A program made the translations under genes and the position numbers. DNA of 47,077 nt. Origin: a virus. The stretch is taken from IMG/VR virus record IMGVR_UViG_3300048080_000070, positions 1-47,077 of that record. One strand, written 5' to 3'. Under the pieces are notes generated by a model that saw nothing but the letters and a program-made list of their open reading frames with translations, did no database searches and was not told the origin of the DNA. Every line of letters starts with the position of its first letter. Position 1 is the first letter of the stretch. Positions 4,427-47,077 of the stretch are shown here, one piece after another.

Positions 4427-5623
4427 CTACCCCGGCCCGCGCTGGTTCCCTAGATACTCCGGGAACCTTACATTCGACAGCAGGCTCCCGAAGGCCGCCA
4501 GATTGGACGCCTGCCTCTGTTGGGCATTGTTGGATGCCGCGCCAAGCCCCTGAATGGCCTGCCCGCGGCCAGAGGATGTGAACTGAAGCAGCGCGTCAAG
4601 GAGATTGTAGGTCTGTCCAAGATCCTGACGCCGAAGTGCGTCGCTATCGATCAGGGCCTCGCGTCGTGCCCCCCTTTGGGCGCGCTCCTGCGCTACGTCA
4701 AGGGCTGAACCGAGCGCCGTCTTGATAGAGACCGGGACGTTTTCGCGGGCTGCTCTCCCGGCCTGATTTGCTCCAATACCGCGGAAGTTCTGCGCGATGG
4801 ACTCAGACTCGGCCGCCAACCTCTGTCTGATGGCGTCGGAGACAGTCGGGGAGAGCCCGCCCGGGTTCCGAATGAGATCCCCGATGCCCTCTATCCCGGC
4901 ACCGAGAATTGGGTCCGTGAATGGTGCCCGCAGAGGCCCGGGCAAGAAACCTTGGATCGTCCCGCTTGAAAACGGCGCGGTGGATATCTTCCGCAGGTCT
5001 CTTTCCTCCCGCGTGCTTCCCAGCTGCGTGCCACCTCCGGCCAAACCCAGTATCGTCCCGATGTATTTCAGCCAGTCTGCGCGCGATCCATTTGGACCCG
5101 GTGACGTTGGGGTGCTTGGACTGGACGGCGGGGTGGCCGACGACGGAGGCGGCTGTCCAGCTGGTGGCTGTGCTCCGGGTGGCTGTGTCCCTGGTGGCTG
5201 CCCGCCCGGAGGCTGCGTTACGGGCCGGGGCGGTATAGGCGGCGGGGTGAGTGGCGACCCCGGCGTTCCAGGCGGTGGCGGTGGCGTCCCTGCCAGTGGC
5301 GACCCGGCCGGTGGCCTTACGCTCGGATCGAAGTAACGAGAGTGCGGCGGCCCGGTTATTCGTTGGCCGGTAAATGGGTCGTTATAGATAGGGTCGCCGT
5401 TGGGGTCGAACTGTCCAGTAAAGACCGGCGGCCTGGAGAAACTTGGGTCTTGCAGGAGCCAAGTTGGGAAAGTCCCATAGACTTGACCAGTTATCGGGTT
5501 GTAGCTACCGCTCGATTGTCTGCCCTGATCACCCGGAAAGAAATCTCCGGTCCCGGGATCGTAATAGCCGAACTGCCCGGCCGGGCTTGAGAAGTAGACC
5601 AGATCTCCTATGTCATGGGGCAT
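4427..5623 (-). CDS. Pro-rich virion-associated protein with a PPGxQ low-complexity tract
   Basis: 398-aa ORF containing TQPPGGQPPGTQPPGAQPPAGQPP and long P-rich segments. Confidence 0.5.
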   Translation of the reverse strand: MPHDIGDLVYFSSPAGQFGYYDPGTGDFFPGDQGRQSSGSYNPITGQVYGTFPTWLLQDPSFSRPPVFTGQFDPNGDPIYNDPFTGQRITGPPHSRYFDPSVRPPAGSPLAGTPPPPPGTPGSPLTPPPIPPRPVTQPPGGQPPGTQPPGAQPPAGQPPPSSATPPSSPSTPTSPGPNGSRADWLKYIGTILGLAGGGTQLGSTREERDLRKISTAPFSSGTIQGFLPGPLRAPFTDPILGAGIEGIGDLIRNPGGLSPTVSDAIRQRLAAESESIAQNFRGIGANQAGRAARENVPVSIKTALGSALDVAQERAQRGARREALIDSDALRRQDLGQTYNLLDALLQFTSSGRGQAIQGLGAASNNAQQRQASNLAAFGSLLSNVRFPEYLGNQRGPG

Positions 5624-12567: not shown

Positions 12568-13671
12568 TTACTGCCAGTTCTGGTCGTCGTCCTGGGCGAC
12601 GCTCTTCGCTCTGGTCGTGGCGACCTTGATGATCTGTCCGGCGAGTGGGTTCAAGACGCCCCCGCTGCCGACGTAGATCTTCCAGGTCATGATTCCCACC
12701 AGCCCGTAGGGATCGTTCTTGTCGGGCTTGCTCGGCGGGATGTAGTTGACCTGCGGAACCCCGACACCCTTCGCGTGGCTGATGCGGGCGGCGTAGCCCT
12801 CACCGACCACCGGGCAACGGATGATCTGGTCCGCGGTGTCAACCGTGCCGGGGAAGTTGACCGACACGTTCTCGTCCTCGATGACTCGGATTCCGAAGAC
12901 TTCTCCGATCATCGCCCTCTCGAACTTGTCCTCACCCCGCAAGTCCCCCTTGAGGGCGATGTCCTGGAAGGTGGCGTCGGTTCTCAGGTCGCCGGCGATT
13001 TCCGGCGAGATGAGGCAGTCGTAGGCCCGGCGTGCGCCCATCCGACGACGGGCGCTCCGAGACCGCAGCCCGGTATAGGCGCTGTTGAACGTCTCGGCGG
13101 CGATCCGGTGCGACGGAATGTCGGCGTCCAGAGTCGCCTCGGTGAGTGTCTGCGACCCGTCCCCCCACGTCACGGCGACGGAGGTTGACGCGCCGAAGTA
13201 GGTCACGCTCGGCACCGTGCTGCTTTGGGAAGCCCCAAAGTCGGTTGTCCCGGTTGAAGAGACCATGATGTTGATGGCCCGCTGATCCAGCGTGTCCTTC
13301 GCGTTGTAAAGGAACCGCTCAGACAGCACCGGGACTGGGTTGGGCTCGGCCGTCATGATCGACTGCTCGGAAAGCTGCAAGTCGTTTCCGATGAGCCGGA
13401 GCGAATAGACAACCGAATCGACTGTGAACGACCGGCCCTTGAGTCCCGCGAAGGTCGCGTACCCAAGAAACTGCGAGATCCCGGCCACCTGCTTCGGGAA
13501 CGAGTTGATGCGGTGGAACTCGATGACCGTGCCTGCGTTGGCAGGAATAACCTGCGATTCCATCAGGTCAGTAGCCATCAGGTCGTTTTGGAGAATCCCG
13601 AGCAACTGCTGTTTCCAGTAGTTGCGAAGGATTGCCTCCGGTCCCCCGGAGGTAGTTATCAGAACTGCCAT
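12568..13671 (-). CDS. Major capsid protein (HK97-fold type inferred)
   Basis: 367-aa ORF immediately downstream of the scaffold-like gene. Size, position and overall sequence character are typical of an MCP. Confidence 0.7.
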   Translation of the reverse strand: MAVLITTSGGPEAILRNYWKQQLLGILQNDLMATDLMESQVIPANAGTVIEFHRINSFPKQVAGISQFLGYATFAGLKGRSFTVDSVVYSLRLIGNDLQLSEQSIMTAEPNPVPVLSERFLYNAKDTLDQRAINIMVSSTGTTDFGASQSSTVPSVTYFGASTSVAVTWGDGSQTLTEATLDADIPSHRIAAETFNSAYTGLRSRSARRRMGARRAYDCLISPEIAGDLRTDATFQDIALKGDLRGEDKFERAMIGEVFGIRVIEDENVSVNFPGTVDTADQIIRCPVVGEGYAARISHAKGVGVPQVNYIPPSKPDKNDPYGLVGIMTWKIYVGSGGVLNPLAGQIIKVATTRAKSVAQDDDQNWQ

Positions 13672-17117: not shown

Positions 17118-17960
17118 TTAGCCAATCGAAAGCCTCTGCTCGTCAGTCGTCTGCTTGCCAGCAATTTCCATCCCCCGCCGTGCCTTGTAATACTTCTCGA
17201 CCTGCATAAGCGGCAATTCCTTCATGTGGTCGAACCAGACGAGCGGGTGGACGGCCAGCGTGAAGCCTGCGCGGTTTGCCTCGACCCCGAAGTTGATGTC
17301 CTCGCCGGCACGCACCTTGCGGTCGTCAAGATAGGTGAAGTAGAACGGCGCAGAGCCGAGGCCGTGTGGCTTCGGAGCGAACACCCGGCGACGGATGGCG
17401 ATACAGCCCGTGCCTACAATGGGCACGCGGTATGGCTGCTTCACGGATTCGTCTGGAATGGGCAGGTTATAGCACTTGCTCTCGTCGTTCACGCCATAGT
17501 TGTTGACCCGGTACATTGATTCGGCGTCCATGTTGCCGACCCACACGGGCGTCAGGCCGCTCACGATGTCCGCGTTCGTCACCGTGCAGAGTTGCCAGAA
17601 GTTCTCCGGGACGATCTGATCGTCGTCGATCATCATGAGCCAGTCGGCGTCGGTCTCGGCCAGGAACGTGTTGACGATGCAGTTGCGGGCGTAGTCCGGG
17701 CCGCGTTTGCCAGCCTCGATATGGATGCCGAACCGGAACGGGCACTCGGGGAGGTGAGAGGACGCCATTGCGCGGGCAAACATGAGCGCGATGGAATAGT
17801 TCACCTTGCCACTCACAGTCGGAACCGCGATGAAGACGGACGGCTTCCGACCCGGCTGAATAGACTCCCGGCGCGACCGCTCCTGCGCGATGTTGACGAT
17901 TGGAGCGGGGGCGGACGAAGCGAACGAGCGCGTCCGCTGGTGTCTGTGGCGTACGCTCAT
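17118..17960 (-). CDS. GT-A fold (family-2-like) glycosyltransferase embedded in the structural operon
   Basis: Motifs: VFIAVPT...; a DxD-type motif (LMMIDDDQIV); GTGCIAIRRRVF; EDINFGVEANRAGF. The start at 17960 is ATGA-coupled to the upstream stop. Confidence 0.7.
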   Translation of the reverse strand: MSVRHRHQRTRSFASSAPAPIVNIAQERSRRESIQPGRKPSVFIAVPTVSGKVNYSIALMFARAMASSHLPECPFRFGIHIEAGKRGPDYARNCIVNTFLAETDADWLMMIDDDQIVPENFWQLCTVTNADIVSGLTPVWVGNMDAESMYRVNNYGVNDESKCYNLPIPDESVKQPYRVPIVGTGCIAIRRRVFAPKPHGLGSAPFYFTYLDDRKVRAGEDINFGVEANRAGFTLAVHPLVWFDHMKELPLMQVEKYYKARRGMEIAGKQTTDEQRLSIG

Positions 17961-19094: not shown

Positions 19095-19967
19095 TCAGTT
19101 CTTGAACATCGAGCCGCGCCCGGACTTCGCCATCACGACGACTCGGGCATCGGAGACTCCGCCAGCGTTCACCTCGGTCCAGATGATCGCGGTCGGGTTG
19201 GGTGACAGGCCGGCGACGTTGCTAGCGATGGCGACTTTCTCGCCGGCTACGTCCAGCGCACCGCCGGTTCCAGTCGTGGCGATACTGAACGTCGCCCCGC
19301 CGATGGTCCCGATGATGTCAACGTCGTGGGTGCCGGCCATGCTGACTCCCGCAACCGCCCAATAGAGCGCGTTGTCCCACAGGCGGATCCGGTGGAGACC
19401 CATCGTCGTGCCGGACGTGCCGAGCGTGAAGGTCGCGTCCTCGGTCATGCCGCGGCCATCGGTGAATGGCCCGCCTGCGAAGGAAGCGCCCCGAAGCATC
19501 GTGCCGTGGACCACGCGCTCCGCGGTTCCAGAACCCGACGCACTCAGCGCCCCGCGATACTGCTTGGCGAGAACGTGACACTGGAACCAGATGCCCCCGC
19601 CCGTTGCCGTCTGGTCAATGAAGATGTGGGTGGGGAGCGGCGCGGACGGACTGTTGTGCAGGTTGGTCAGGACGACCCGGCTGGCCGTCAGCGGGCCGAT
19701 ACCAGCCACGCGGGCGATTGGCATCCCGGTGTATCCGGTAATGGCGTCGGTCTCAATGGTGACGGTCCATGAACCCCCAGTCGCCCCACCAGCGACGCTC
19801 ACGCCCTGCAACACGAACATGCAGTCGTCCCACATGAGCGTGCCGCGGAGCGGGTTGTTCTGGCGGGTGAATGTTCCCGCCGAAGAGTCTCCAGCGGTCA
19901 GGCGTACATCTGCGTTCTGGTTCGTGACGCCCCAGATTCTTGCTTGGACTGTCTTGTCAAACCCCAC
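19095..19967 (-). CDS. Two-domain 'IGGATF' family protein (290 aa)
   Basis: The C-terminal half carries DVDIIGTIGGATFSIATTG...NPTAIIW. The N-terminal half shows a weaker copy of the same pattern (WTVTIETDAITGYTG...LPTHIFID). Confidence 0.6.
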   Translation of the reverse strand: MGFDKTVQARIWGVTNQNADVRLTAGDSSAGTFTRQNNPLRGTLMWDDCMFVLQGVSVAGGATGGSWTVTIETDAITGYTGMPIARVAGIGPLTASRVVLTNLHNSPSAPLPTHIFIDQTATGGGIWFQCHVLAKQYRGALSASGSGTAERVVHGTMLRGASFAGGPFTDGRGMTEDATFTLGTSGTTMGLHRIRLWDNALYWAVAGVSMAGTHDVDIIGTIGGATFSIATTGTGGALDVAGEKVAIASNVAGLSPNPTAIIWTEVNAGGVSDARVVVMAKSGRGSMFKN

Positions 19968-20014: not shown

Positions 20015-20371
20015 TCAGAATTTCCTACCTGCTCCGCCACTACCGCCACGACGGTACTTGGTTGTAGCATCACGAACATCCGGCGGACCAATTACGCCAC
20101 GGAAAAGTCTGGCGTACTTTGGAATTGCCTCAACAGCCCTTGCCGCCAGCCGACCAGGTGAGTAAGGACTGGCCGCCATACTTGATCCACCACCGGATCG
20201 GCCACGCCTCGTCACCTCGATGATCTTCTCGCCCAACTTGTACCAATTAGTGTCCCGATAAGTGGCGAGATGTTTGCCCTCTCCACTTGCCTTGAGCGCC
20301 AAGTCGGTTGAACTTGGACTTCTTGCGGCCGGGTTGAACTTCCCTCTTCGTCCAGACAGATCATCTGCCAT
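20015..20371 (-). CDS. Hypothetical basic Gly-rich protein
   Basis: The internal ATG at 20371 is ATGA-coupled to the TerL stop. 118 aa. Confidence 0.45.
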   Translation of the reverse strand: MADDLSGRRGKFNPAARSPSSTDLALKASGEGKHLATYRDTNWYKLGEKIIEVTRRGRSGGGSSMAASPYSPGRLAARAVEAIPKYARLFRGVIGPPDVRDATTKYRRGGSGGAGRKF

Positions 20372-22152
20372 CAATGCACCATGACCGCCGGCAGCCCCGT
20401 GTACCTGGACACGAACTGTATCGGCGGACGCTCGTACTTCTCTTCGATCACCGGGATGGCGACCGGAACCCATCGGGACAGAACCTCATCGGCGTTCGCG
20501 TTCGCCATCATGTCGAGCGTGTCGCGCTTGACCGACGCGGGATACTCGTTCACCGTCGTTCTCAGAACAGAGAGTGCGGCCTTGTTGATCGTGCTCAGGT
20601 AGTACCAGTGGCCCATCTTGGCCTGGCCGGCCACGGTTGAAATGCGGTCGTTCTTGGCCCGCTTGCTCCACGACTTCGCGTCGATGAAGCGCGGCTGGTT
20701 CGTCGGGCGGGCCTCGCGTGGCGTGGACTTCCAGATCCGCTTCATGAACCCGACCATCGGCTTGTCGGCCTGCTGCTCGATGACGTAGAAGTGGGTGTGC
20801 CAGACGCGCATCATACGGAGGATTTCGTCGGCCCCTTCGTCGGACTCCATGTCGTTGCTGACGTTGAGGTCGAGGAGCACGTTGTCGATTTGACCAGCGA
20901 TTGAATATGAGTCAATGCAGCCGATGGCAGCATCAGCGCCCTCTTGGTGGTTGTCATCGCCTTTCCATGCCGGATCACAATACACGGCGCGAAACTTCGG
21001 GAGATTGCCGAACCGCTTGGCGAACTCTTCCGGGGTGAGCGGCTGGAAGAACTCCCACTGTAGGGCCTGCTCGCCGGTCAGGGTCGGGTCGAGTTGGTAC
21101 TGGAGATACCAGAATCGGTCGGTCCCGCGGCGGCGGATCTCGTTCGCCCGCTCCTTCGCCAACGCTTCAACGGATAGGCGCGGAATCGTCGGAAAGTTCG
21201 GCTTGTTGTCGTCGGTGAGCGCGGGCGTGCGGATGACGTAGTAGCGCGGGGTGCCGTCCTCATGCTTCTCCTCGATCATCGGCTTATAGAGGCTCTGGAT
21301 GTGGTAGGGCGTCCCCGCGACCCACTCGCGGGTCCAAGGCGGGGCGTTCAGCTGGCGCAACTGGTCGTAGCGGTCCTTCAAGTCCTCGCGGACGGATTCG
21401 GAATTGCGCGAGTCCTCCGCTTCCCAGTCGTCCAGCCCCTTGTAGTTGTAGCCCGATCCGGCTTTCCTGGATAGGGCGGCATCGGCATTCATGTTCTTCT
21501 CGTCGGCCATGAACTGGAGATCGCGGCACGGCCAGTTCCAGTGCCCCTTCTCGCCCCACTCGGCCAAGGGGATGGCGAAGTTGGCTGGCCCGCCTGTCAC
21601 GGTCTCGCAGCCGTCCCCGAAATGCTTGCGGATATATGGGTTGTGCCGGTTCATGTTCTTGATGGATTCGAGGGCGCCAGTGGCGCGGAACTCCAGGTTG
21701 TGCGAGTAGAGAAACAGGAGGTCGAGATCTTCGATGATCTTGTGCCGCTTCGGCAGCCAGTCGAAAGCCATCTTCAAGAAGAACGACTTGAGCCCCCGGC
21801 GCGGGTACTGGTGATGGATGCCGTCGTATTTGTCTAACTGGCCTGCCGCCATCAGCACAACGGTCTTTGCCACTTCGTCACGGTGCCGCGGCGGGTGCAG
21901 AAGCTTCCGGAACCGCGGCTGCTTGTACCAAGTCTGGAGCGCGTAGTGCCAGAACGGGTTATGCTCGACCGCAACGTCCGCCACGGGCCGGCCGACAATG
22001 TGCTGGAACACAATGCTATGGGGCTCCTTGCCGTACTTGGCGAGGAGTTCGGCCCCAAGCATGATGGAAAGGTCGCGCTCCACCGACACGGCGGCGGCGA
22101 GCAGCACGTTGGGGTCGATGTCAGGCGTTCTTGCGCTGGTCGTTTCCGTCAC
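20371..22152 (-). CDS. terL: Terminase large subunit
   Basis: 593 aa with a P-loop-like YPRRGLKS. The C-terminal half has RNaseH-like acidic motifs (AVYCDPAW and DTLDMMANA). It sits at the head of the structural operon. Confidence 0.7.
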   Translation of the reverse strand: MTETTSARTPDIDPNVLLAAAVSVERDLSIMLGAELLAKYGKEPHSIVFQHIVGRPVADVAVEHNPFWHYALQTWYKQPRFRKLLHPPRHRDEVAKTVVLMAAGQLDKYDGIHHQYPRRGLKSFFLKMAFDWLPKRHKIIEDLDLLFLYSHNLEFRATGALESIKNMNRHNPYIRKHFGDGCETVTGGPANFAIPLAEWGEKGHWNWPCRDLQFMADEKNMNADAALSRKAGSGYNYKGLDDWEAEDSRNSESVREDLKDRYDQLRQLNAPPWTREWVAGTPYHIQSLYKPMIEEKHEDGTPRYYVIRTPALTDDNKPNFPTIPRLSVEALAKERANEIRRRGTDRFWYLQYQLDPTLTGEQALQWEFFQPLTPEEFAKRFGNLPKFRAVYCDPAWKGDDNHQEGADAAIGCIDSYSIAGQIDNVLLDLNVSNDMESDEGADEILRMMRVWHTHFYVIEQQADKPMVGFMKRIWKSTPREARPTNQPRFIDAKSWSKRAKNDRISTVAGQAKMGHWYYLSTINKAALSVLRTTVNEYPASVKRDTLDMMANANADEVLSRWVPVAIPVIEEKYERPPIQFVSRYTGLPAVMVH

Positions 22153-23089: not shown

Positions 23090-23118
23090 TTGACGTTCCG
23101 TTGCGAATGGCGTACACT
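23090..23118 (+). promoter_or_regulatory. Sigma70-like promoter for the rightward HTH and glycosylation operon (TTGACG-N17-TACACT)
   Basis: Hexamers and spacing were read directly from the sequence. It lies about 25 nt upstream of the GTG at 23144. Confidence 0.5.
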
Positions 23119-23143
23119 TGGTTGCGTGGGCGGAGAGTTGGAC

Positions 23144-23338
23144 GTGCTGGTGAGGCGGATCGAGGCGGCCAGGCTTGAGCGGTTGCTATCCAAGACCGCC
23201 CTTGCCGCGCTCGCCGGGGTCAGCCGACAGAGGGTAAGCGAGTTGCTGAATGGCCGGAACAGGTCGCTATCCACGCTGCGGGCGCTGAAATTCGTGCTGT
23301 GGCCACCGGAGGAATTGAAACCCAATGCCCCGCGTTGA
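23144..23338 (+). CDS. XRE/Cro-like helix-turn-helix transcriptional regulator
   Basis: RIEAARLERLLSKTALAALAGVSRQRVSELLNGRNRSLSTL fits an HTH_XRE pattern. A GTG start at 23144 is preferred over the ORF-track start at 23090. Confidence 0.6.
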   Translation: MLVRRIEAARLERLLSKTALAALAGVSRQRVSELLNGRNRSLSTLRALKFVLWPPEELKPNAPR

Positions 23339-24074
23339 GCGCAACGCCGAAGTCACGCTGGTCGTACTCGTCTACCGCTCTCTGCGGTGGCTTGACTGGT
23401 GCATGGAGGGGGTCGATTCAATTAGAACCGACACGCGGTATCGGTGGCTAGTCGTGGCGAACGACGCGACCGAGGAGGTTCGGGCCGACCCGCGCATCTC
23501 GGTGGACTTCCGCAACGATGACCCCGGCGAGTTCTACATCAATCGCGTGTATCGAGCCTGGAACGAGGGTGTCCTGAACGCGCCGACACCGTGGGTCGTA
23601 ATGCTCAACTCCGACATGTTTGGAAGCGACGGGTGGATCGACGAACTCATGGATGTGAAATGCAAGACGCCAAAACTCGTGCCGACTTCTCTGCTTATCG
23701 AGTCTGGCCGCCTGCCGTCTGGGATGCCAGAATACGTCAGGGATTTCGGCAAGAACCCCGACGAGTTCAAGGCAGATGAGTTCAAGGCTCACGCCGCGTC
23801 CATCGCCAAGCCTGCCATACGGCAGGAAGGGATGGGGGCGATGGGAGTCGGGACGCTTGTATTCCCGCAGACGGAACCAGGCCGCCTCTACATGCCCATC
23901 CTCGTAGACCGCCAGGAGTTCATGGACGTGGGCGGCTACCCGGAGGGCAATCCACCGGGCACGACCGGCGACAAGGATCTCGTCCGGCGGTATGCGGAGG
24001 CCGGATTCACACACGTCACGGCGCTGGGGAGCGTGGTCTATCATTGTCAAATCGGTGAGCAGACATGGCCCTGA
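23325..24074 (+). CDS. GT-A fold (family-2-like) glycosyltransferase
   Basis: Motifs: VTLVVLVYRS, VVANDAT, YRAWNEGV, VVMLNSDMF and DKDLVRRYAEAGF. Confidence 0.6.
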   Translation: MPRVERNAEVTLVVLVYRSLRWLDWCMEGVDSIRTDTRYRWLVVANDATEEVRADPRISVDFRNDDPGEFYINRVYRAWNEGVLNAPTPWVVMLNSDMFGSDGWIDELMDVKCKTPKLVPTSLLIESGRLPSGMPEYVRDFGKNPDEFKADEFKAHAASIAKPAIRQEGMGAMGVGTLVFPQTEPGRLYMPILVDRQEFMDVGGYPEGNPPGTTGDKDLVRRYAEAGFTHVTALGSVVYHCQIGEQTWP

Positions 24075-24667
24075 CGGACTGCGGCTTCGCCCACGACACG
24101 TCGATAGACTACGAGGCCATTGGCACAATTCTTGGTCACTGTGAGTCCTTGGCCTATGTTGGTGCCCTGTGCGCCTATGAGGCCGGCGTATTGGCGGATC
24201 GGTTGTCGTGCAAATACACAACCGTCATCGAGGCCAGTCCATACAACTTCTCCAGCGTTACATTGTCTGGGCCGTGTAGGCAGAAGAACTCCGTTGCACT
24301 ATGCGCGATCATCTCCGACACCAACGGACTTGGCAGGCTCTACATCACAGAGCATCCGTTTGCGTGCAGCGTTGTACCATTAAGCACCAATTCGGTGCGA
24401 GTCCCCATGCTGCGGCTGGACACCCTGTTGAAAGACCGCCCCCCGGAGTTCCTGGTCATCGATGCGGAGGGAGCGGCCTTGGCGGTTCTGCGCGGAGCGG
24501 CCGGGATAGCCAATAGTATCCGAGCCGTTCTGGTCGAGACCGAGGACGACGCCCACCGCATCGGCGATGTGCGCGATGATGTCTTTACCTATCTGAGGAA
24601 TGGCGGTTATGCTGTGCGGCACGATCCTGGCGGAAAACAAACAAACTCCCTGTGGGTTCGGCCCTGA
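24065..24667 (+). CDS. FkbM-family SAM-dependent methyltransferase
   Basis: EFLVIDAEGAALAVLRGAAGI...AVLVETE, plus an upstream YVGALCAYEAG motif, is typical of Methyltransf_21/FkbM. Confidence 0.6.
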   Translation: MALTDCGFAHDTSIDYEAIGTILGHCESLAYVGALCAYEAGVLADRLSCKYTTVIEASPYNFSSVTLSGPCRQKNSVALCAIISDTNGLGRLYITEHPFACSVVPLSTNSVRVPMLRLDTLLKDRPPEFLVIDAEGAALAVLRGAAGIANSIRAVLVETEDDAHRIGDVRDDVFTYLRNGGYAVRHDPGGKQTNSLWVRP

Positions 24668-25572
24668 TGGGCACGGTTATAGCCATGACCGTTCACGACC
24701 GCACCGACGAGGTCTTGGACGCCGTATTCGCGGGAATCAGCCTTCCAGGCAACAGACCCGACAGGATAGTGGTGTGCTTCGACCGGGCGCGCCAAGAGAC
24801 AATAGCCAAGACACAGAAGAATTGCCACACTCTCAATATCCCACTTGACTACACGGTCCTCGATGACCCGGCCATCGGGCCACGCTGCCCGTCAATGGCC
24901 TGGAACAGGGCGCTCGGTCTCGTCACGGAAGATTACGCCTTCTGCATTTCATCTGATGTTATTTTGGGGCCGCACAGCGTTGGAATGGCTTATCACCTCG
25001 TCAAGGAACGTCCGGAAAGCATCGTTTGCGGCAAGGCGGATCACTGTGGCAGTTCATACGTTTGGCAATGGCTTCTAGCCAACGGAGAAAAGGTAACACA
25101 CAGAACGATGACCTGCTCTATTGCGGGCAGACCGCTCGGCTTCGACTGGCTCCTTCCCATGAAACTTGTCCGAGAAATCGGAGGATATGACGAAGCCTTC
25201 ATGAACGGACTGTGCTATGAAGATGACGATTTCACAATTCGCATGTGGCGGGCGGGGGCCGACATCATCTTCTGTGACGATGTTTCCGGGATTCACTTGG
25301 AACACAAACGGGATCACCTGAAAGACGCCGACGGCAGGGTGGCCCATAACGAAAGGTTGTTTAAGGATCGCCACGGGGACATAAACTATCTCAGGGATGC
25401 CAAGTTCCAGAGATATATATGGAAAGATCCGAATGTGCCGGGGTTGAGCGTTTGGTTCCATGTTGAAGACCCAAACACCCCACAGAAGCTCGCCACTGCC
25501 CAGCAACTCTATGGGGTTGATCAGCCATGGAGGGCGATAATTCCCCACGATCCGGCGGAGATTAAGCCATGA
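24667..25572 (+). CDS. GT-A fold glycosyltransferase (paralog of 29141-29923)
   Basis: Motifs AWNRALGL...FCISSDVIL and GGYDEAFMNGLCYEDDDFTIRMWRAGADI. The ATG at 24667 overlaps the upstream TGA. Confidence 0.65.
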   Translation: MGTVIAMTVHDRTDEVLDAVFAGISLPGNRPDRIVVCFDRARQETIAKTQKNCHTLNIPLDYTVLDDPAIGPRCPSMAWNRALGLVTEDYAFCISSDVILGPHSVGMAYHLVKERPESIVCGKADHCGSSYVWQWLLANGEKVTHRTMTCSIAGRPLGFDWLLPMKLVREIGGYDEAFMNGLCYEDDDFTIRMWRAGADIIFCDDVSGIHLEHKRDHLKDADGRVAHNERLFKDRHGDINYLRDAKFQRYIWKDPNVPGLSVWFHVEDPNTPQKLATAQQLYGVDQPWRAIIPHDPAEIKP

Positions 25573-25742
25573 GCCGCGTAATGTTCTACTGTCCAGTCTG
25601 TGGGCGCACCATACTCCACACATACCCAAATTATTACGAGCCGAATACAATTTGCAACTGCGCTTTCCCTGTGCAAGTGACCGGGATGGTCAAAGTGCCA
25701 ATGTCAGACCCGGTGCCCTTGGGAAACCTGAAAATAACATGA
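25569..25742 (+). CDS. 57-aa Zn-ribbon mini-protein
   Basis: MSRVMFYCPVCGRT...ICNCAF. ATGA-coupled at both ends. Below the ORF-track cutoff. Confidence 0.5.
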   Translation: MSRVMFYCPVCGRTILHTYPNYYEPNTICNCAFPVQVTGMVKVPMSDPVPLGNLKIT

Positions 25743-26731
25743 GACGCCTCCTCGTGAACGATCAACTCTCCGCGCTGCCGGATCACCGGACGTTCTGGCA
25801 CGATCTGATGGAGTGGTTTGACATGGAATTCGCCGGAGCAGACTTCGGTGGACTTGTCAAAGAAGCCGATGAGCGTATCGATTTCTTCCTTCAAGACGGC
25901 TACGCTGGAGATGACATCCCTCGGTTGATTATCCGCAACGCAACGTGGTTCGGGCCGCTCAAGGCGAGCGCAACCGTCCCGACCATCTCGCTCTTGCAGG
26001 ACATTATCACCGAGGGGCCGCAGCGCCACATGCAGTTGGCTGTTATCGCTTCATCCAAAGCGACGGTGTTTAACTCCATCTTCACGGCCGACAAATACAT
26101 ACCACACCCGGAGGACGAGTCCACAACACTCGACATGCCACACAGAGTCATCCCGCTCCCCGTTGACTTCACCCTCTTCGAGCCAGGCAACGCGATGGGC
26201 CTGCAACAGTCGCTCTCGCTTCCCGACGGCTGCGTCTGCTGGATTGGAGCGTCGGTTGGGGCCGCCGGGGCCGTCAAGGGGTGGGACATCTTCGTGCGGA
26301 TTGCCAGGCTCAACCCGGACATTCCATTCGTGGGGGTGTTCAAGGATGCTGCGCCGGAGTACGGGCCGCCCAACCTGCGGACGTTCGTGAGGGCCACCCA
26401 CGAGGAGTTGGTCAAGGTCATCGGGGCTTGTCGCGTCGGACTCTGTACCTCACGCATGGAGTCGCAGCACCTCGCCGGCATCGAGATGGGGGCGTGTGGG
26501 CTCCCGATGGTCGCGCCGCCCGTGGGGTGCTATTGGAAGCGGGAGGACATGCCGGGCATTCTGGTTGGCGAGCCCACGCCGGAGTCCTATGCCACCGCAC
26601 TCCGGGCCATGCTCAAGCAGCCGGGCGACCCGCAGGCGATACGGGAGTATTGGCAACGGGAGTATGACAAGCCTGTTATAAGAGCGGCGTGGACGACACT
26701 TATCGAGGAGGTCGAGTGCTCTGGTCGATAA
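25739..26731 (+). CDS. GT-B fold (group-1/GT4-like) glycosyltransferase
   Basis: KGWDIFVRIA and ESQHLAGIEMGACGLPMVAP form an EX7E-type motif. I used the internal ATG at 25739 of ORF 25652..26731. Confidence 0.65.
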   Translation: MRRLLVNDQLSALPDHRTFWHDLMEWFDMEFAGADFGGLVKEADERIDFFLQDGYAGDDIPRLIIRNATWFGPLKASATVPTISLLQDIITEGPQRHMQLAVIASSKATVFNSIFTADKYIPHPEDESTTLDMPHRVIPLPVDFTLFEPGNAMGLQQSLSLPDGCVCWIGASVGAAGAVKGWDIFVRIARLNPDIPFVGVFKDAAPEYGPPNLRTFVRATHEELVKVIGACRVGLCTSRMESQHLAGIEMGACGLPMVAPPVGCYWKREDMPGILVGEPTPESYATALRAMLKQPGDPQAIREYWQREYDKPVIRAAWTTLIEEVECSGR

Positions 26732-27342
26732 TGATCGCCGCGATTCCAGAGAGGTTTCATTCCGTCCAGCCACTACTCTATTCGCTCTTGGAGGCGCAGT
26801 CCGTGGCGCGGATGCCAGACGTTGAACTGCTCTACTTCATGGATAGCCGCAAGCGGCCGGTTGGGGCGAAGCGGAACGATCTGCTGGCGATGGCCCGTGG
26901 CGAGTACGTCTCGTTCATCGACGACGACGACGAGGTGGCGAGCGACTATGTGCGCCGCATCCACGACACCATCGTATCGGCCAGGAAGTCCGATCCGCGG
27001 GCCGACGTGATCTGCTTCCCGCAGCGGGCCACGCTCAAGCCCCACGGCGTCACGCACGAATGTACCTACTCGCTGGCGCATTGGCGGGACCGGAAGCCGG
27101 AGGAGCGACGGCAACTCGCGCATGGCTCGGACGCCAATACGCTGCTGTGGAGCGGCCCGCCGGCCCACACGATGGCATGGAGACGCGAGACTATCGGTGA
27201 CACGCGGTTCCCCAACAAGACCTTCGGCGAGGATGTGGATTGGGTGAACGCGGTATGCGCCAAGGCCACGACGGAGATTGTGCTGACAGGCGCGCCGCTA
27301 TACTTCTACAAGTTCGATGAAGAGAGGACGGCGACACGATGA
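26731..27342 (+). CDS. GT-A fold glycosyltransferase
   Basis: MIAAIPERF..., GEYVSFIDDDDEV (DxD motif) and GEDVDW. The start overlaps the upstream stop (TAATG). Confidence 0.65.
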   Translation: MIAAIPERFHSVQPLLYSLLEAQSVARMPDVELLYFMDSRKRPVGAKRNDLLAMARGEYVSFIDDDDEVASDYVRRIHDTIVSARKSDPRADVICFPQRATLKPHGVTHECTYSLAHWRDRKPEERRQLAHGSDANTLLWSGPPAHTMAWRRETIGDTRFPNKTFGEDVDWVNAVCAKATTEIVLTGAPLYFYKFDEERTATR

Positions 27343-27542
27343 AACCAAAGTATTGTTCCATGTGCGGCCACGAAACGGTCTTACAACCGAGCGGAACGTT
27401 CAATTCTCAAACCGGCGAACCGGACAGCTGGGCGTATTGTAATAACCCGGGCTGTGAAGCGTTTAGAGCATCGCGGTCTGCAAATAGCGTGTTCGGGGCG
27501 GTGGGCGATTTCTTTCGTTCATTCAGGACGCCGATGCGATGA
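27339..27542 (+). CDS. 67-aa Zn-ribbon mini-protein
   Basis: CSMCG...CNNPGC. ATGA-coupled at both ends. Confidence 0.55.
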   Translation: MKPKYCSMCGHETVLQPSGTFNSQTGEPDSWAYCNNPGCEAFRASRSANSVFGAVGDFFRSFRTPMR

Positions 27543-28660
27543 GTCAGTCCGGTATCTACTCAGAATCCAAGATGATTTGGTGGTTTGCCCGCGACCGTGG
27601 GTTGCCAGCGGCCCCAAAACAGGTACAGCTGATTTTATCCGATCTGTGCAATCAGGACTGCCACTTCTGCGCCTACCGCATGAGCGGCTACACGTCGAAT
27701 GAGTTGTTTGTGGGCGACTCGAAGCAGGCCGCCTACGGCCACAGCAATCCCGTCCGGTGGATACCGACGGAGCGGGCTCTGAAACTAGTGGACGAAATCA
27801 AGGAGGTCGGGGCGCTCTCGATACAATTCACAGGCGGCGGCGAGCCAACCGTGCATCCAGAGTGCGATAAGATATTCTCACGCGCCTTGGAGCACGGGCT
27901 GAGGTGTGCCCTGGTAAGCAACGGCGTGAAGTGGAGTGCGGACCTTATCAAGAACCTGTTGCCACGCTTCGATTGGGTTAGGGTGTCGGTGGATGCCGGC
28001 GATGCGGCTTCGTATTCCCGCATCCGCCGCACACCAACGGCACATTGGGGCCGCGTGTGGGCTAATATCAAGGGTCTGGCCGAAGCTATTCGGTTGGGCG
28101 AAACGCACACCAACCTCGGCATTGGATTCGTCGTCACGCCGGACTCCTACCGCGAGATACCAGAGTTTGCCGCGGTCGCTGCGAAGAGCGGAGCGCACAA
28201 CATCCGCTTCTCCGCCATGTTCAGCCCGGAGGACGAGAAGCCGTTCGTGGGCATCTATGACATGGTGCGCGTATTCATCGACAAGGCGCGCCGGGTCCAT
28301 GAGACTGACACGTTCAAGGTCCACGACAACTTCGGGTCCAGGTTCGACGACCTGCGCCAGCACGCGCCGGACTACTCGTTCTGTTCGTACCAGCACTATA
28401 CGGCCTATGTCGGGGGCGACATGAACGCCTACCGCTGCTGCGTTCTGGCCTACAACAAGCGCGGGCTGGTGGAGGGCGGGAACCTCAAGGAGCGGTCGTT
28501 CACGGAGTTCTGGAGGTCGCCGGAGCGTCTGGCCGACATGAACGCGCTTGACGCCAAGGGATGCGAGCGGTGCCAGTTTAACGTGAAAAATCGGCAGATG
28601 CTCTACGTCATGGGGAATACCGAGTCGGATACCACATCGAGGCACATCGAATGGCCGTAG
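27539..28660 (+). CDS. Radical SAM enzyme with a C-terminal Cys cluster (SPASM/twitch-like?)
   Basis: Contains CNQDCHFC (CxxxCxxC), GGGEP, and C-terminal FCSYQ...RCCVLAYN...GCERCQFN. Confidence 0.75.
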   Translation: MSQSGIYSESKMIWWFARDRGLPAAPKQVQLILSDLCNQDCHFCAYRMSGYTSNELFVGDSKQAAYGHSNPVRWIPTERALKLVDEIKEVGALSIQFTGGGEPTVHPECDKIFSRALEHGLRCALVSNGVKWSADLIKNLLPRFDWVRVSVDAGDAASYSRIRRTPTAHWGRVWANIKGLAEAIRLGETHTNLGIGFVVTPDSYREIPEFAAVAAKSGAHNIRFSAMFSPEDEKPFVGIYDMVRVFIDKARRVHETDTFKVHDNFGSRFDDLRQHAPDYSFCSYQHYTAYVGGDMNAYRCCVLAYNKRGLVEGGNLKERSFTEFWRSPERLADMNALDAKGCERCQFNVKNRQMLYVMGNTESDTTSRHIEWP

Positions 28661-28821
28661 AGAAGCGCAGAAAACTCTATTCGGTGGTCGTTCCATACGA
28701 CTGCACGCAACAAATAATTCTCGAAGCGTTCGAGGCTAACAGAAAATTCAGAGCAGAGTACGCAAGGACGCGCCGAGCCAACAGGAGGAACTATCGAGTC
28801 AAGCCAAGGAAACCGCAATGA
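28651..28821 (+). CDS. 56-aa strongly basic protein
   Basis: MAVEKRRKLYSVVVPYDCTQQ...RRANRRNYRVKPRKPQ. It overlaps both neighbours and is below the ORF-track cutoff. Confidence 0.35.
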   Translation: MAVEKRRKLYSVVVPYDCTQQIILEAFEANRKFRAEYARTRRANRRNYRVKPRKPQ

Positions 28822-29138
28822 AGCCTCGGATCGTCAAGGTCAAACGGAGTTGGCTTAGCCGGGTTTGGTGGACAACACGCCACGAGTATTTCTGTCTGCT
28901 GCGGCACGTTGGACTGCGCGACCGCCTTCGCTGTCCGTATTGCCACAAGGTCGGCACATGGAAACCACACAAGCAGCCGCGGAGGTGGCTGTGTAAGTGG
29001 TGTGGGGTCTATGGTGACATCGGAAGGTGGGGGCCGGCTTGGCCGTGTGGCAAGAAGAAAGTGTGGATGCTCAAGCCGATCAAGAAACTGAAGTTGCCGA
29101 GCGAAAGAGTGGTCAACGTCAATCCGTGGAGGGGATAG
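28818..29138 (+). CDS. 106-aa basic Zn-ribbon protein
   Basis: CPYCHKVG...CKWCG, loosely reminiscent of transposase-type N-terminal Zn-ribbons. Confidence 0.5.
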   Translation: MKPRIVKVKRSWLSRVWWTTRHEYFCLLRHVGLRDRLRCPYCHKVGTWKPHKQPRRWLCKWCGVYGDIGRWGPAWPCGKKKVWMLKPIKKLKLPSERVVNVNPWRG

Positions 29139-29140
29139 AC

Positions 29141-29923
29141 ATGAGGCTCTCCGCTTGCATCACCATCAACGCCCGCTCCGCGACCGACCTGGAGTTGGTG
29201 TTTGACTCCATGCGCGACCAGGCCCACGACGAGTTCATCATCGTGCTTGATGCTCCAACGCCGGACATCGCCCACTACTGCCGGACCTATTGGGAGGACG
29301 ACCAGCGCACCGTGTTCATGCCCATCGACCGCCCACCCGGCTGGCGCTCACCGGTCAAGGCGTGGAATGTAGGTTACAGCCGCGTCACCGGCGACCTGCT
29401 CTACTGCTTCTCCAGCGAGACCGTCCAGCAGCCCGGCAACGTCGCCAAGGCCAAGGCCATGCTGGAACAGGAGCCCGCTGTCATCTTCGGCAAGGCGGAG
29501 TGCTCATGCGGGCCGGACGGGCAGGAGGTCTATTGGGGCGGCACGGCCCCTGGCAACCTGCTCTCCAACGCCGCCCACCCCCGCCCCCTTGGCTTCATCT
29601 GGGCCGCGCCCATGCCCAACGTCCGCAAGATGGGCGGTTGGGACGAAACCTTCGACCGCGGCCTCTGGTTCGATGAATCCGACTTCTTCTACCGCCTCTG
29701 GCGTACCGGCCTCAACTTCGTGTTCGATGACGCAATCGCCGGCACCCACCTCCACCATGCCAGACCAGGCCTCGAAACCCCAGAAGGCAAGGCCGCCATC
29801 CAGACAAACCTAGCCTACATAACCGCCAAGCTCGGCTCCACCAACCCCATCGCTGACCTCCCCAAAATCATCTCGGCCAACCCAACCCATCCCGGCCGTA
29901 CCGTCTGGAAACACCTCGCCTGA
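29141..29923 (+). CDS. GT-A fold glycosyltransferase (paralog of 24667-25572)
   Basis: AWNVGYSRV...CFSSETV and GGWDETFDRGLWFDESDFFYRLWRTGLNF. GGAGGGGA lies upstream of the ATG at 29141. Confidence 0.65.
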   Translation: MRLSACITINARSATDLELVFDSMRDQAHDEFIIVLDAPTPDIAHYCRTYWEDDQRTVFMPIDRPPGWRSPVKAWNVGYSRVTGDLLYCFSSETVQQPGNVAKAKAMLEQEPAVIFGKAECSCGPDGQEVYWGGTAPGNLLSNAAHPRPLGFIWAAPMPNVRKMGGWDETFDRGLWFDESDFFYRLWRTGLNFVFDDAIAGTHLHHARPGLETPEGKAAIQTNLAYITAKLGSTNPIADLPKIISANPTHPGRTVWKHLA

Positions 29924-30196
29924 AAATTCTGCGGAAAATGGCGGAGGGAACACTTCGATTTCGCCACCGCCAAGAACCGGCACCCCCCCACGGGTACCCC
30001 TACCTATGCCTATCCACACCCATACCTATGCGTCCTGGCTCATAACACATAGGCCACTCGCTCAGACGCCGTAAGTCTAGTGCTGTCAGCGACCTGGGCC
30101 TGCTGGGGGCAGGTCCACATAACATGAGTTATCGGACGTAGCGCAGACCCCTAGTGCCGCAAGGCCTACACAGACCCATGATCATTCCGGGCCGCC

Positions 30197-30256
30197 AGTC
30201 TCACGCCAGTCTCAACTAGTCTCAAGCGCGGTCTCAAGTCTCAAGGATTAGTCTCA
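30197..30256 (+). repeat. Iteron-like array: six direct copies of (A)GTCTCA in 60 bp
   Basis: GTCTCA occurs at 30198, 30209, 30219, 30231, 30238 and 30251, with spacings of 7-13 bp. Confidence 0.85.
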
Positions 30257-30258
30257 GG

Positions 30259-30385
30259 TACGCCATTTTGGCGTAGTAGTCTGCACCGAGGTGCGTCATT
30301 ATGGCGTACCTCGCCATGTCCTCCACAGGTATCAATCATGTCATTTTGGCGCGGTCTAATTCGTCAGGTGCGTCAATTTGGCGTG
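30259..30385 (+). repeat. Four copies of a ~15-bp motif, GCGTCAWTTTGGCGT (partly palindromic)
   Basis: TACGCCATTTTGGCGTA at 30259-30275 (6-bp inverted arms). Core copies at 30297-30306 (CATTATGGCG), 30342-30351 (CATTTTGGCG) and 30374-30383 (CAATTTGGCG). Confidence 0.8.
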
Positions 30386-30451
30386 GTGGTGTGGGCAATG
30401 ATCGTGCCGTGTTGTGTGACTTTTGGTACTGAGATAGTCGGTTGATTGCCA

Positions 30452-30480
30452 TTGCACCGTGTCGCGGTGCGCTACATAAT
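30452..30480 (+). promoter_or_regulatory. Sigma70-like early promoter (TTGCAC-N17-CATAAT)
   Basis: Read directly from the sequence, 24 nt upstream of the ATG at 30504. Confidence 0.5.
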
Positions 30481-30503
30481 GAGGGTGGAAAGAGGAGGGT
30501 GCT

Positions 30504-43897: not shown

Positions 43898-43972
43898 GGT
43901 GACGTTAGCTCAACTGGATAGAGTCCGCGGCTGTGGCCCGCGTGGTGGGGTTCGAGTCCCCGCGTCACACCA
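43898..43972 (+). tRNA. tRNA-His (anticodon GTG), slightly non-canonical
   Basis: Cloverleaf folded by eye. Acceptor stem GTGACGT/GCGTCAC (one G.U). U8-A9. D arm GCTC-AACTGGATA-GAGT. Anticodon arm CGCGG-CTGTGGC-CCGCG. T loop TTCGAGT. Discriminator A. CCA is encoded. G at -1 (43898). The T-stem/acceptor junction is 1 nt short. Confidence 0.75.
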
Positions 43973-43973
43973 A

Positions 43974-44059
43974 GCCAAGGTGCCCGAATGGCTAAGGGAT
44001 CCGGCTGTAACCCGGAAGTCGGCAAGGCCGTGGAGGTTCGATTCCTCCCCTTGGCACCA
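43974..44059 (+). tRNA. tRNA-Tyr (anticodon GTA), type II with a long variable arm
   Basis: Acceptor stem GCCAAGG/CCTTGGC. D loop with GG. Anticodon arm TCCGG-CTGTAAC-CCGGA. Variable arm CGGC-AAG-GCCG. T arm GGAGG-TTCGATT-CCTCC. Discriminator A. CCA is encoded. Confidence 0.9.
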
Positions 44060-46537: not shown

Positions 46538-47077
46538 GTGGAGGGGCAGCGATGGATCATCCTCCCCGACATGCAAATTCCATACCACGACACTCGCTCC
46601 ATGGCGGCGGTCGAATCCTACATGGCCGCGCACCGATGGGACGGTTATCTCAACCTTGGGGACTTTCTGGACTTCAACGAGTTGAGCTCGTTCGTGGAGG
46701 GAAGGCCCGGGGCGGTCACGGAGGACGTGGCCTCAACCTTTGCGGCTGGCAACGCGATCCTGACGCGCCACGTTGCCCTGACGCGGGCCAAGAATCCGGC
46801 GGCGAGGATGGTTCTGCTGCAAGGCAACCACGACTACCGAGCCGTGTCCTACGCGGAGAAGCGCCCAGGCCTAAAGAAGCATCTGGACGTGCCGCTCAAC
46901 CTACACTTGGCAGAGCGCAAGATCGAGTGGGTGCCATCGTGGGAGAAGGGCAAGTTGTTCCGGCTTGGGAACGCCTACTTCACGCATGGCCGCATCGTGT
47001 CAAAGTACCATGCGGCGCGGATGGTCGAGCATTACGGGGTGTGTATCTACTACGGCCACACACACGATGTCTCGCTC
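46538..47077 (+). CDS. Calcineurin-like metallophosphoesterase, N-terminal part (runs off the window and continues at 128-367 after circularisation)
   Basis: From the GTG at 46538: ILPDMQIPYHD, LGDFLD, GNHDY and then GHTHD. Absent from the ORF track because there is no in-window stop. Confidence 0.75.
   Translation, partial: MEGQRWIILPDMQIPYHDTRSMAAVESYMAAHRWDGYLNLGDFLDFNELSSFVEGRPGAVTEDVASTFAAGNAILTRHVALTRAKNPAARMVLLQGNHDYRAVSYAEKRPGLKKHLDVPLNLHLAERKIEWVPSWEKGKLFRLGNAYFTHGRIVSKYHAARMVEHYGVCIYYGHTHDVSL
46951..47077. repeat. Terminal direct repeat identical to 1-127
   Basis: Compared base by base, by eye. Confidence 0.9.

Follow-up and report, generated by a model that had tools for sequence, protein, structure and literature searches.

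A bacterial virus that carries a whole set of glycosyltransferase genes raises the question of what it glycosylates. We address this question for IMG/VR virus record IMGVR_UViG_3300048080_000070, of which positions 1 to 47,077 were analysed (hereafter the window, 47,077 nucleotides in all). A run of plus-strand genes at 23144-29923, here called the cassette, had been read in a preliminary description as a glycosylation island, with virion glycosylation, remodelling of the host surface and DNA hypermodification as candidate roles. Our analysis of the encoded proteins, of their metagenomic relatives and of their counterparts in cultured phages leads us to propose, with a probability of about one half, that the cassette equips the phage's own virion proteins with a methylated, radical-tailored glycan. 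That glycan building of some kind is the activity of the cassette is very probable. To our knowledge, phage-encoded virion glycosylation has been shown experimentally, among bacterial viruses, only for a few mycobacteriophages, in which it shields the particles from antibodies.

Glycosyltransferases of the cassette

Five proteins of the cassette, designated A, C, E, F and K, are predicted glycosyltransferases. The preliminary description had counted four GT-A-like enzymes and one GT-B enzyme with an EX7E motif among them, and this count stands: A was confirmed by AlphaFold and Foldseek, and the others by profiles and motifs. The core enzyme A (23325-24074, plus strand; 249 amino acids (aa)) has no match in Pfam, PHROG or NCBIfam and nothing significant in a profile search of the PDB, and its assignment therefore rests on fold search. 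Its AlphaFold model, built from 32 homologues, shows a GT-A fold with a predicted local distance difference test score (pLDDT) of 93, and the top PDB matches returned by Foldseek are the chondroitin polymerase K4CP and ppGalNAc-T2 (E ~1e-9). D47, D97 and H240 are invariant in the 32 homologues. The family comprises 351 homologues, 52-77% identical among those listed, and the loci inspected have phage gene context; A appears to be a phage-restricted family. Residues ~163-180 of A include a 17-residue insertion (AIRQEGMGAMGVGTLVF...) that is missing from all five aligned orthologues and that the model predicts with the lowest confidence (pLDDT 73-84).

The core enzyme F (26716-27342, plus strand; 208 aa) is a predicted GT2 glycosyltransferase that matches PF00535 at 26.5 bits against a cut-off of 23.3 and phrog_8858 at 2e-22, with invariant DDDD and ED motifs. 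C (24667-25572, plus strand; 301 aa), an accessory enzyme, and K (29141-29923, plus strand; 260 aa), a core enzyme, are paralogues of about 30% identity and GT2-like with a putative GT-A fold. C has weak matches to Glyco_tranf_2_3, Glyco_transf_7C and GT2 profiles and K to PF00535, in both cases below the Pfam cut-off; the two share conserved SS[ED] and W-Y-D-D-D-D-F motifs, and their PDB profile matches are GT2 enzymes at 2e-5, including heparosan synthase and the glycosyltransferase 5tze. K is 39-62% identical to its counterparts in relatives of the phage. An orthologue of C was found only in L006 among the related loci described below, and L043 encodes a C-like glycosyltransferase of 34% identity. 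The core enzyme E (25739-26731, plus strand; 330 aa) matches PF13692 (Glyco_trans_1_4) at 30.4 bits against a cut-off of 27, as well as phrog_2170, and its EX7E pair, E241-x7-E249, is invariant in seven orthologues. Its best PDB sequence match is WbaZ-1, and its relatives are 52-66% identical. E was assigned to GT4 by its C-terminal domain, and its GT-B class is read from sequence only.

Taken with the sixth glycosyltransferase GT6 described below, A, C, F and K are predicted to adopt the GT-A fold and E the GT4/GT-B architecture, and all six would be soluble enzymes that use nucleotide sugars. No transmembrane segment was found in the cassette proteins (the maximum Kyte-Doolittle 19-residue score is at most 1.47). 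The cassette likewise lacks a GtrA/GtrC-like membrane protein, a flippase, a polymerase and an initiating phosphoglycosyl transferase. These observations point to an acceptor in the cytoplasm.

The radical SAM enzyme and the methyltransferase

Protein H (27539-28660, plus strand; 373 aa) is a core member of the cassette and a predicted radical S-adenosylmethionine (SAM) enzyme with a twitch/SPASM-type auxiliary-cluster domain (PF04055, 1e-18, and PF13186, both above their cut-offs). The CxxxCxxC motif by which it had been recognized beforehand (C37/C41/C44) is invariant in 24 sequences, as are GGGEP and the cysteines C282, C300, C301, C342 and C345. The invariance of these five C-terminal cysteines suggests that H carries an auxiliary [4Fe-4S] cluster domain, with a spacing like that of the BtrN-type twitch auxiliary-cluster motif.

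The nearest solved relatives of H, by sequence and by fold, are DesII and BlsE. The best PDB matches by sequence are BlsE (1e-10), DesII (7e-6) and PqqE, and in a search with the predicted fold (pLDDT 84) DesII ranked first (E 3e-17, template-modelling score 0.63-0.66) and BlsE second, above the maturases of ribosomally synthesized and post-translationally modified peptides (RiPPs) SuiB, SkfB, PqqE and CteB, anSME and viperins. DesII, a TDP-4-amino-4,6-dideoxyglucose deaminase, and BlsE, a cytosylglucuronate decarboxylase, both act on nucleotide- or nucleoside-linked sugars; their identity to H is merely 17-19%, however, and H has its five invariant C-terminal cysteines. The NCBIfam scores of H are 24.4 for TIGR04426 (cut-off 450), 41.9 for TIGR04466 (cut-off 400) and 70 for the twitch subfamily NF033640 (cut-off 170). 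Because all equivalog scores fall far below their cut-offs, H appears to represent a new family and to be the orthologue of no sugar-tailoring radical SAM enzyme.

The best cellular homologues of H are 34-41% identical and occur without the other cassette genes. In a Zixibacteria metagenome-assembled genome (MAG) the homologue adjoins an MptE/Maf-like gene, methyltransferase genes, a radical-SAM-methyltransferase fusion and a DXD glycosyltransferase gene; in a Magnetococcales MAG it adjoins a gene for a PseB/CapD-like dehydratase, and in Desulfamplus a GT2 gene. H may make an unusual sugar or sugar nucleotide from a common one. Its proximity to DesII and BlsE means that it may be the phage's way to an unusual sugar, offsetting the absence of genes for nucleoside diphosphate (NDP)-sugar pathways. 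The earlier statement that the phage has no nucleotide-sugar synthesis genes therefore needs qualifying, as H may itself make such a sugar.

Protein B (24065-24667, plus strand; 200 aa) had been read as an FkbM-type methyltransferase, and it matches PF05050 well above the cut-off (36.3 bits against 22.7), together with phrog_8156; TIGR01444, at 33.8, lies just under its cut-off of 37.7. B is thus a predicted FkbM-family SAM methyltransferase. It occupies a variable slot, which in relatives holds a Methyltransf_24 or Methyltransf_23 enzyme instead of FkbM.

A sixth glycosyltransferase at the portal gene

The sixth glycosyltransferase that had been placed in the structural operon was found there. 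GT6 (17118-17960, minus strand; 280 aa) is GT-A-like, with invariant DDD and ED motifs, a PF13641 (Glyco_tranf_2_3) match at 6e-4 that lies below the cut-off, and matches to phrog_1574 (1.5e-10) and phrog_34859. A PDB profile search with it gave nothing significant, and a tblastn search of 50,697 GenBank phage genomes (the set used for all searches of phage genomes below) returned one uncultured match. The gene lies in the morphogenesis operon, directly upstream of a gene for a 655-aa portal-like protein, and it is present in all close relatives at the same position (66-74% identity). Even in the loci L042 and L043, whose terminases are 41-43% identical, GT6 (44-48%) still lies directly upstream of the portal gene. 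The head operon of L043, moreover, holds genes for a GT25 enzyme, a radical SAM enzyme, the C-like GT2 enzyme and a Methyltransf_24 protein in the interval from terminase to portal.

Orthologues of the 655-aa protein (~50% identical; L042 16170-18059, L043 9437-11359) match SU10_portal weakly or faintly, and in L042 a gene further downstream (20853-21527) has an SU10_adaptor match. These matches suggest that the lineage is distantly related to SU10-type podophages in its head-tail connector. A tailspike with a pectate-lyase fold is encoded in L008 and L042. Between the terminase gene and GT6 there is always a gene for a 290-aa protein rich in Gly, Thr, Ser and Ala (19095-19967, minus strand) that consists of two similar halves. 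It keeps 27-31% identity even in distant relatives and has no Pfam, PHROG or PDB match; a structural or decoration role is possible.

Conservation among metagenomic relatives

H has more than 1,000 metagenomic homologues, of which the best 120 share 52-75% identity with it, many of them lying on contigs of 42-50 kb. We compared 15 related loci with terminases 73-78% identical. The gene order looked for in metagenomic and phage databases was kept in every locus that covers the positions: capsid, portal and GT6, then terminase and a gene for a 239-aa protein, followed by A, the variable part, E, F, H and K. The core is therefore A-E-F-H-K beside the terminase gene, with GT6 beside the portal gene, and the variable parts are the methyltransferase (FkbM, Methyltransf_24 or Methyltransf_23), C and insertions of HNH endonuclease genes; L008 also encodes a GT25 enzyme and one more radical SAM enzyme. 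This conservation of order and content suggests that the set is a co-inherited functional unit and not a recent cargo from a host.

The enzyme set also occurs in a virus of another kind. L033 (IMGVR_UViG_3300020057_000496; 166,852 bp), an unrelated viral contig, encodes H, A and E at 40-42% identity, two F-like proteins at 34-36% and homologues of C/K, with identities of 35-42% over the enzyme set, which suggests that the set moves between unrelated phage lineages. The L033 island (~13 kb, in L033 1-20675; also in L034) comprises about ten genes for glycosyltransferase-like proteins together with one radical SAM and one Methyltransf_24 gene, and its extra enzymes are an intein-containing GT4 enzyme and GT32-, GT2- and GT17-like enzymes. 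Scans of IMG/VR with the terminase alignment gave no further related contigs, and a scan with the single radical SAM protein found nothing. Neither a nucleotide search with the island nor a tblastn search with the terminase gave a match in the GenBank phage genomes.

Mobile elements were seen in the cassette enzymes of several relatives. P0120, a 500-aa radical SAM homologue, contains an intein (PF14890); in another radical SAM homologue (L017 9893-11506) ~150 inserted aa interrupt the sequence immediately behind the CxxxCxxC region; and the GT4 enzyme of L033 (775-2973) contains an intein with a LAGLIDADG endonuclease. Genes for HNH homing endonucleases lie inside the cassettes of L005 (5930-6677), L006 (5539-6072) and L008 (9498-10025). 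In L005 a partial second copy of A, with 76% identity to A residues 182-249, comes after the inserted gene, an arrangement that looks like the footprint of an endonuclease-mediated insertion.

Relationship to actinophage virion-glycosylation genes

The closest counterparts of cassette enzymes in cultured phages are actinophage proteins. All 61 tblastn matches of F in the phage genomes are in Mycobacterium or Gordonia phages, the best being Che8 gp108 (34% identity, 94% coverage, 3e-17), and an F profile matched the glycosyltransferase domain of Che8 gp108 at 91.7 bits. A K/C profile aligned with Che8 gp109 over 153 columns (hhalign probability 94%, E 1e-7), sharing with it the motif G-x-[YF]-D-E-x-F...W-Y-D-D-D, and matched Corndog gp37 at 37.7 bits in hmmsearch. 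Pairwise tblastn searches of the phage genomes with A, E and K gave no match, and the relationship of K to gp109 and gp37 is therefore distant. Che8 genes 108-110 and Corndog genes 35-38 are annotated clusters of glycosyltransferases and methyltransferases, and in Corndog and Gordonia phage Forza the homologous glycosyltransferases lie inside the structural operon. In two articles that cite Freeman et al. 2023 (PMC12363180, PMC12619734), virions of Che8, Corndog and Myrna are stated to bear glycans on capsid and tail-tube subunits, and Che8 gp110 and Corndog gp38 are named as essential glycosyltransferases.

The likeness thus extends to phage-encoded, soluble enzymes accompanied by a methyltransferase, to the individual pairs F with gp108 and K/C with gp109 and gp37, and to a location in or next to the structural operon (Corndog, Forza), as for GT6 and the L043 cassette. 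In contrast to the actinophage sets, the cassette adds A, the GT4 enzyme E and an invariant radical SAM enzyme, and there are six glycosyltransferases instead of three. The methyltransferases are not homologous: no relationship was found between the cassette methyltransferase and either the C-terminal domain of Che8 gp108 or Corndog gp35. The match of A to the C-terminal half of Forza gp93 (18.7 bits) was too weak to serve as a Rosetta-stone link. The phage studied here belongs to an unrelated and apparently short-tailed lineage with an SU10-type portal.

Operon structure and genome context

The ORF listing and separate gene calls, the latter made on an identical contig of the Logan assembly, agree on the 12 consecutive plus-strand genes that had been reported at 23144-29923, with starts at 23144, 23325, 24065, 24667, 25569, 25739, 26716, 27339, 27539, 28651, 28818 and 29141. 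Adjacent genes overlap by 1-16 nt, five of the junctions being ATGA, and only the last gene is separated from its neighbour, by 2 nt. A terminator scan found no convincing plus-strand site between the 12 genes (nothing above shuffled sequence). Because the genes are packed so tightly, the cassette is very probably one translationally coupled unit, consistent with the single operon that had been proposed. The island takes up 6,599 bp, or 14% of a genome of 46,950 bp, the share given previously.

The regulatory part of the earlier picture was borne out to a lesser extent. The sigma70-like site TTGACG-17-TACACT (23090-23118, plus strand; 9 of 12 consensus positions) does exist, in the divergent intergenic region between the packaging and structural arm and the cassette. 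Such sites are no more common in this region than in shuffled sequence (four found, 3.1 expected), and it is therefore only a candidate promoter. The first gene of the operon (23144-23338, plus strand; 64 aa) encodes an XRE/Cro-type helix-turn-helix (HTH) protein (PF01381, 1.2e-7), and an HTH gene occupies the same position in the relatives L005, L006 and L007. The HTH assignment holds; that the protein regulates or times the expression of the cassette is a role it may have.

Small open reading frames (ORFs) are interleaved with the enzyme genes. D (25569-25742, plus strand; 57 aa) has a CxxC...CxC pattern; G (27339-27542, plus strand; 67 aa), situated 5' of the radical SAM gene, is zinc-ribbon-like with a weak Phage_zn_bind match; I (28651-28821, plus strand; 56 aa) is basic; and J (28818-29138, plus strand; 106 aa) is basic and Cys-rich, with two CxxC motifs. 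CxxC pairs are thus present in D, G and J. None of the four has a phmmer match in the related loci, where the small ORFs at these positions are unrelated in sequence and one is HNH-like. The mini-ORFs of the preliminary description are therefore real open frames that lie outside the conserved system, and we treat them as incidental.

Positions 1-127 of the window are identical to 46951-47077. This 127-bp overlap of the ends indicates a circularly assembled genome of 46,950 bp, and the window is probably a complete tailed-phage genome. The same phage was recovered as a 46,958-bp contig in the Logan assembly of run SRR35513625. The genome-mean G+C content is ~0.61, and the island, at 0.54-0.63, is close to it. 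The large terminase gene lies at 20371-22152 (phrog_38). Pfam and PHROG scans, which covered essentially every ORF of the genome, identified an internal-virion-protein-like gene, an AAA_25 ATPase, an M23 peptidase and the recombination genes Sak4-like, PD-(D/E)XK and ERCC4. The same scans detected no integrase or other recombinase-type lysogeny gene, no DNA polymerase, and no ThyA-like enzyme, TET/5mYOX/JBP dioxygenase or C5- or other DNA methyltransferase, of which very divergent forms could escape such scans. Adjacent genes for tRNA-His(GTG) and tRNA-Tyr(GTA) lie in the right arm (43898-44059). Planctomycetota and Saccharibacteria labels of MAGs, each on single matches, are probably binning artefacts, and no host was assigned.

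A 580-bp gap 3' of the cassette (29924-30503) is dense in repeats. AGTCTCA occurs in five exact copies inside 60 bp (30197-30256) and only three times elsewhere in the genome. After these come four copies of a ~30-nt unit with GCGTCAnTTTGGCG (30254-30393), and two of the copies make up an inverted repeat of 18 nt. Such an arrangement resembles iterons or operator sites, as at an origin or a regulatory hub.

Discussion

Glycosylation of the virion, the role listed first in the preliminary description, is favoured by the homology of F, K and C to actinophage enzymes, by GT6 at the portal gene and by the location of the L043 cassette inside the head operon. In the mechanism that we envisage, the cassette would form a self-contained cytoplasmic machinery, whose glycosyltransferases would act in sequence with host NDP-sugars and assemble an oligosaccharide on Ser or Thr residues of nascent structural proteins, GT6 being co-expressed with the head genes. 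H would make an unusual sugar, for which deamination, dehydrogenation, decarboxylation, dehydration or epimerization are all possible, and would in this way replace a multi-gene NDP-sugar pathway. The methyltransferase would O-methylate the glycan, and methyltransferase swaps together with gain and loss of glycosyltransferases would diversify it among relatives. We also put forward, somewhat more tentatively, a stronger proposition: that the ~46-kb short-tailed lineage, and at least one phage on a ~167-kb contig, obligatorily coat their virions with a lineage-specific methylated oligosaccharide containing an unusual sugar from a dedicated radical SAM enzyme, with GT6 hard-wired to the portal and head genes.

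Two places where such a glycan might be attached can be named speculatively. The major capsid protein (12568-13671, minus strand; phrog_1357, 7e-18) has an S/T-rich loop at residues ~137-165, the sole internal length difference among three aligned capsid proteins that are otherwise 70-75% identical; this loop is a speculative candidate for a glycan site. A 398-aa protein of the tail or injection region (4427-5623, minus strand) has a Pro/Ser/Thr-rich linker (SSATPPSSPSTPTSPGPNGS, from near residue 161). Segments rich in Pro, Ser and Thr are often O-glycosylated in other systems, and the linker is an equally speculative candidate acceptor.

Several points weigh against virion glycosylation. The S/T-rich capsid loop, as acceptor, is a guess. 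GT2 and GT4 enzymes are generic, and both polysaccharide synthases and protein O-glycosyltransferases occur among their fold neighbours. BLAST and HMM searches found no homologue of gp110 or gp38 among the cassette proteins, and A and GT6, tried as candidates for a Che8 gp110-like initiating enzyme, reached hhalign probabilities of only 2% and 5%, respectively. Nucleotide and terminase-level searches of the GenBank phage genomes revealed no cultured member of the lineage. Transcription of the cassette leads away from the structural arm, and the cassette stands first in an arm with recombination and replication genes; it could therefore be expressed early. Finally, adjacency of glycosyltransferase and terminase genes has been reported for DNA-modifying enzymes as well (bioRxiv 10.1101/2023.12.21.572611).

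This last point belongs to the proposal that the glycosyltransferases act on a hydroxylated base of the phage DNA, with H and the methyltransferase tailoring the base or the sugar, and so provide evasion of restriction. Enzymes of the GT-A and GT-B types are known to act on 5-hydroxymethylcytosine and 5-hydroxycytosine (5hoC) in DNA, are related to GT2-like folds and can lie near the terminase gene (bioRxiv 10.1101/2023.12.21.572611, PMC13326640); the cassette, for its part, is a core feature that abuts the packaging genes and heads the DNA-metabolism arm, and a glycan that diversifies would be of advantage in an arms race with type IV restriction. The phage DNA-glycosylation systems (T4 AGT and BGT, the 5mYOX- and ThyA-associated systems, and the arabinosyl-5hoC system of RB69 and DLP3) likewise have clustered glycosyltransferases, sometimes with sugar tailoring, as part of the lineage core. 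However, these pathways always encode a maker of the hydroxylated base, usually together with a phage DNA polymerase; by the described routes the maker is a ThyA-like hydroxymethylase, a 5hoC synthase or the pair of a C5-methyltransferase and a 5mYOX/TET enzyme, and neither these nor a DNA polymerase were detected in the sweep of this genome. In addition, E has the GT4 EX7E motif, unlike T4 BGT, FkbM is not a known family of DNA methyltransferases, and the only relatives of F in cultured phages are actinophage glycosyltransferases. DNA hypermodification is therefore unlikely, as the preliminary description had already argued from the lack of such enzymes. If, instead, H matured a mini-ORF peptide that was then glycosylated, in the manner of glycocins and sactipeptides, or if the product were a glycosylated nucleoside or an aminoglycoside-like metabolite, the SPASM/twitch domain of H, its RiPP-maturase fold neighbours SuiB, SkfB, PqqE and CteB, and the small Cys-containing ORFs on either side of it would fit, as would the part that BlsE and DesII play in antibiotic pathways. 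Nevertheless, the lack of homologues of the mini-ORFs in related loci leaves no conserved precursor peptide, and on this ground we rejected a RiPP; no RRE/PqqD-like domain, protease or exporter was seen, five or six glycosyltransferases exceed what a glycocin needs, and the module is tied to head genes. We regard a peptide or small-molecule product as quite improbable.

Remodelling of the host envelope is a more serious competitor, although we consider it doubtful. The soluble enzymes would act at the cytoplasmic face on lipid-linked intermediates (O-unit, lipopolysaccharide (LPS) core, capsule or a teichoic-acid-like polymer) or on a surface protein such as pilin, flagellin or S-layer, and the changed receptor would exclude superinfecting phages or stop progeny from adsorbing to debris. 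Most PDB and NCBIfam neighbours of the glycosyltransferases are indeed polysaccharide or teichoic-acid enzymes (heparosan synthase, RmlT, WbaZ, PglI, WcaA), and cellular H homologues adjoin MptE/Maf-like (Zixibacteria) and PseB/CapD-like (Magnetococcales) genes, the MptE/Maf-like family being linked to flagellin glycosylation. This is also the usual reading of phage glycosyltransferase islands in the literature (PMC7029224). On the other hand, the absence of an integrase or lysogeny gene makes classical seroconversion unlikely: GtrABC modules combine membrane proteins with a temperate lifestyle, and neither is seen here, as there is no GtrA/GtrC-like protein, flippase, polymerase, initiating enzyme or transmembrane segment. 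The module is, moreover, a conserved core of the lineage instead of a variable moron, GT6 is fixed in the head operon, and the sole homologues in cultured phages belong to actinophage clusters linked to virion glycosylation. The second of the previously listed roles is thereby weakened. A host block for O-antigen or LPS, recently captured and carried without a phage-specific role, would account for the Pfam and NCBIfam names, which are those of LPS and exopolysaccharide enzymes, and for the G+C content of 0.535 at 25-26 kb against a genome mean of ~0.61. We give such passive cargo hardly any credence and rejected it, as the cellular homologues of H are at most 41% identical and have no syntenic partners from the cassette, the inspected homologue contigs of A and H have phage gene context, and order and content are kept across phages with terminases 73-78% identical.

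Other viral systems place virion glycosylation by the cassette in a broader setting. In the chlorovirus PBCV-1, cytoplasmic glycosyltransferases encoded by the virus (A064R and others) and a methyltransferase activity put a methylated oligosaccharide on the major capsid protein; PBCV-1 is a giant virus of eukaryotes, its glycans are N-linked and host membrane machinery is not used. We know of no radical SAM enzyme in that system. The likeness drawn here is to the proposed function of the cassette. In uncultured or marine phages, among them pelagimyophages and cyanomyophages, glycosyltransferase genes and radical SAM cassettes are found together close to structural or tail genes (PMC7029224, PMC12801897). 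These sets, also compared by description, are accessory, hypervariable islands of large myoviruses that have been read as LPS-related, in contrast to the conserved core of a 47-kb phage found here. Our search of the literature found no description of such a cassette. Virion glycosylation by phages is itself known already, and what is new here is probably the size of the set, its occurrence in an unrelated and abundant lineage, the constant radical SAM enzyme and the fixed position of GT6 at the portal gene.

Should the target be DNA or the host envelope, the pathway would still be new, because the usual partner enzymes are absent. If the stronger proposition above is true, bacterial viruses other than actinophages would have their first virion-glycosylation system, and radical chemistry would enter a viral glycosylation pathway for the first time. 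With the virion as the target, H would represent a compact new route to rare sugars, with use in glycoengineering and in the alteration of phage surfaces. The varying content of methyltransferases and glycosyltransferases would indicate selection on the surface chemistry of the particles in soil and water, and self-glycosylation by phages would be far more general than has been assumed.

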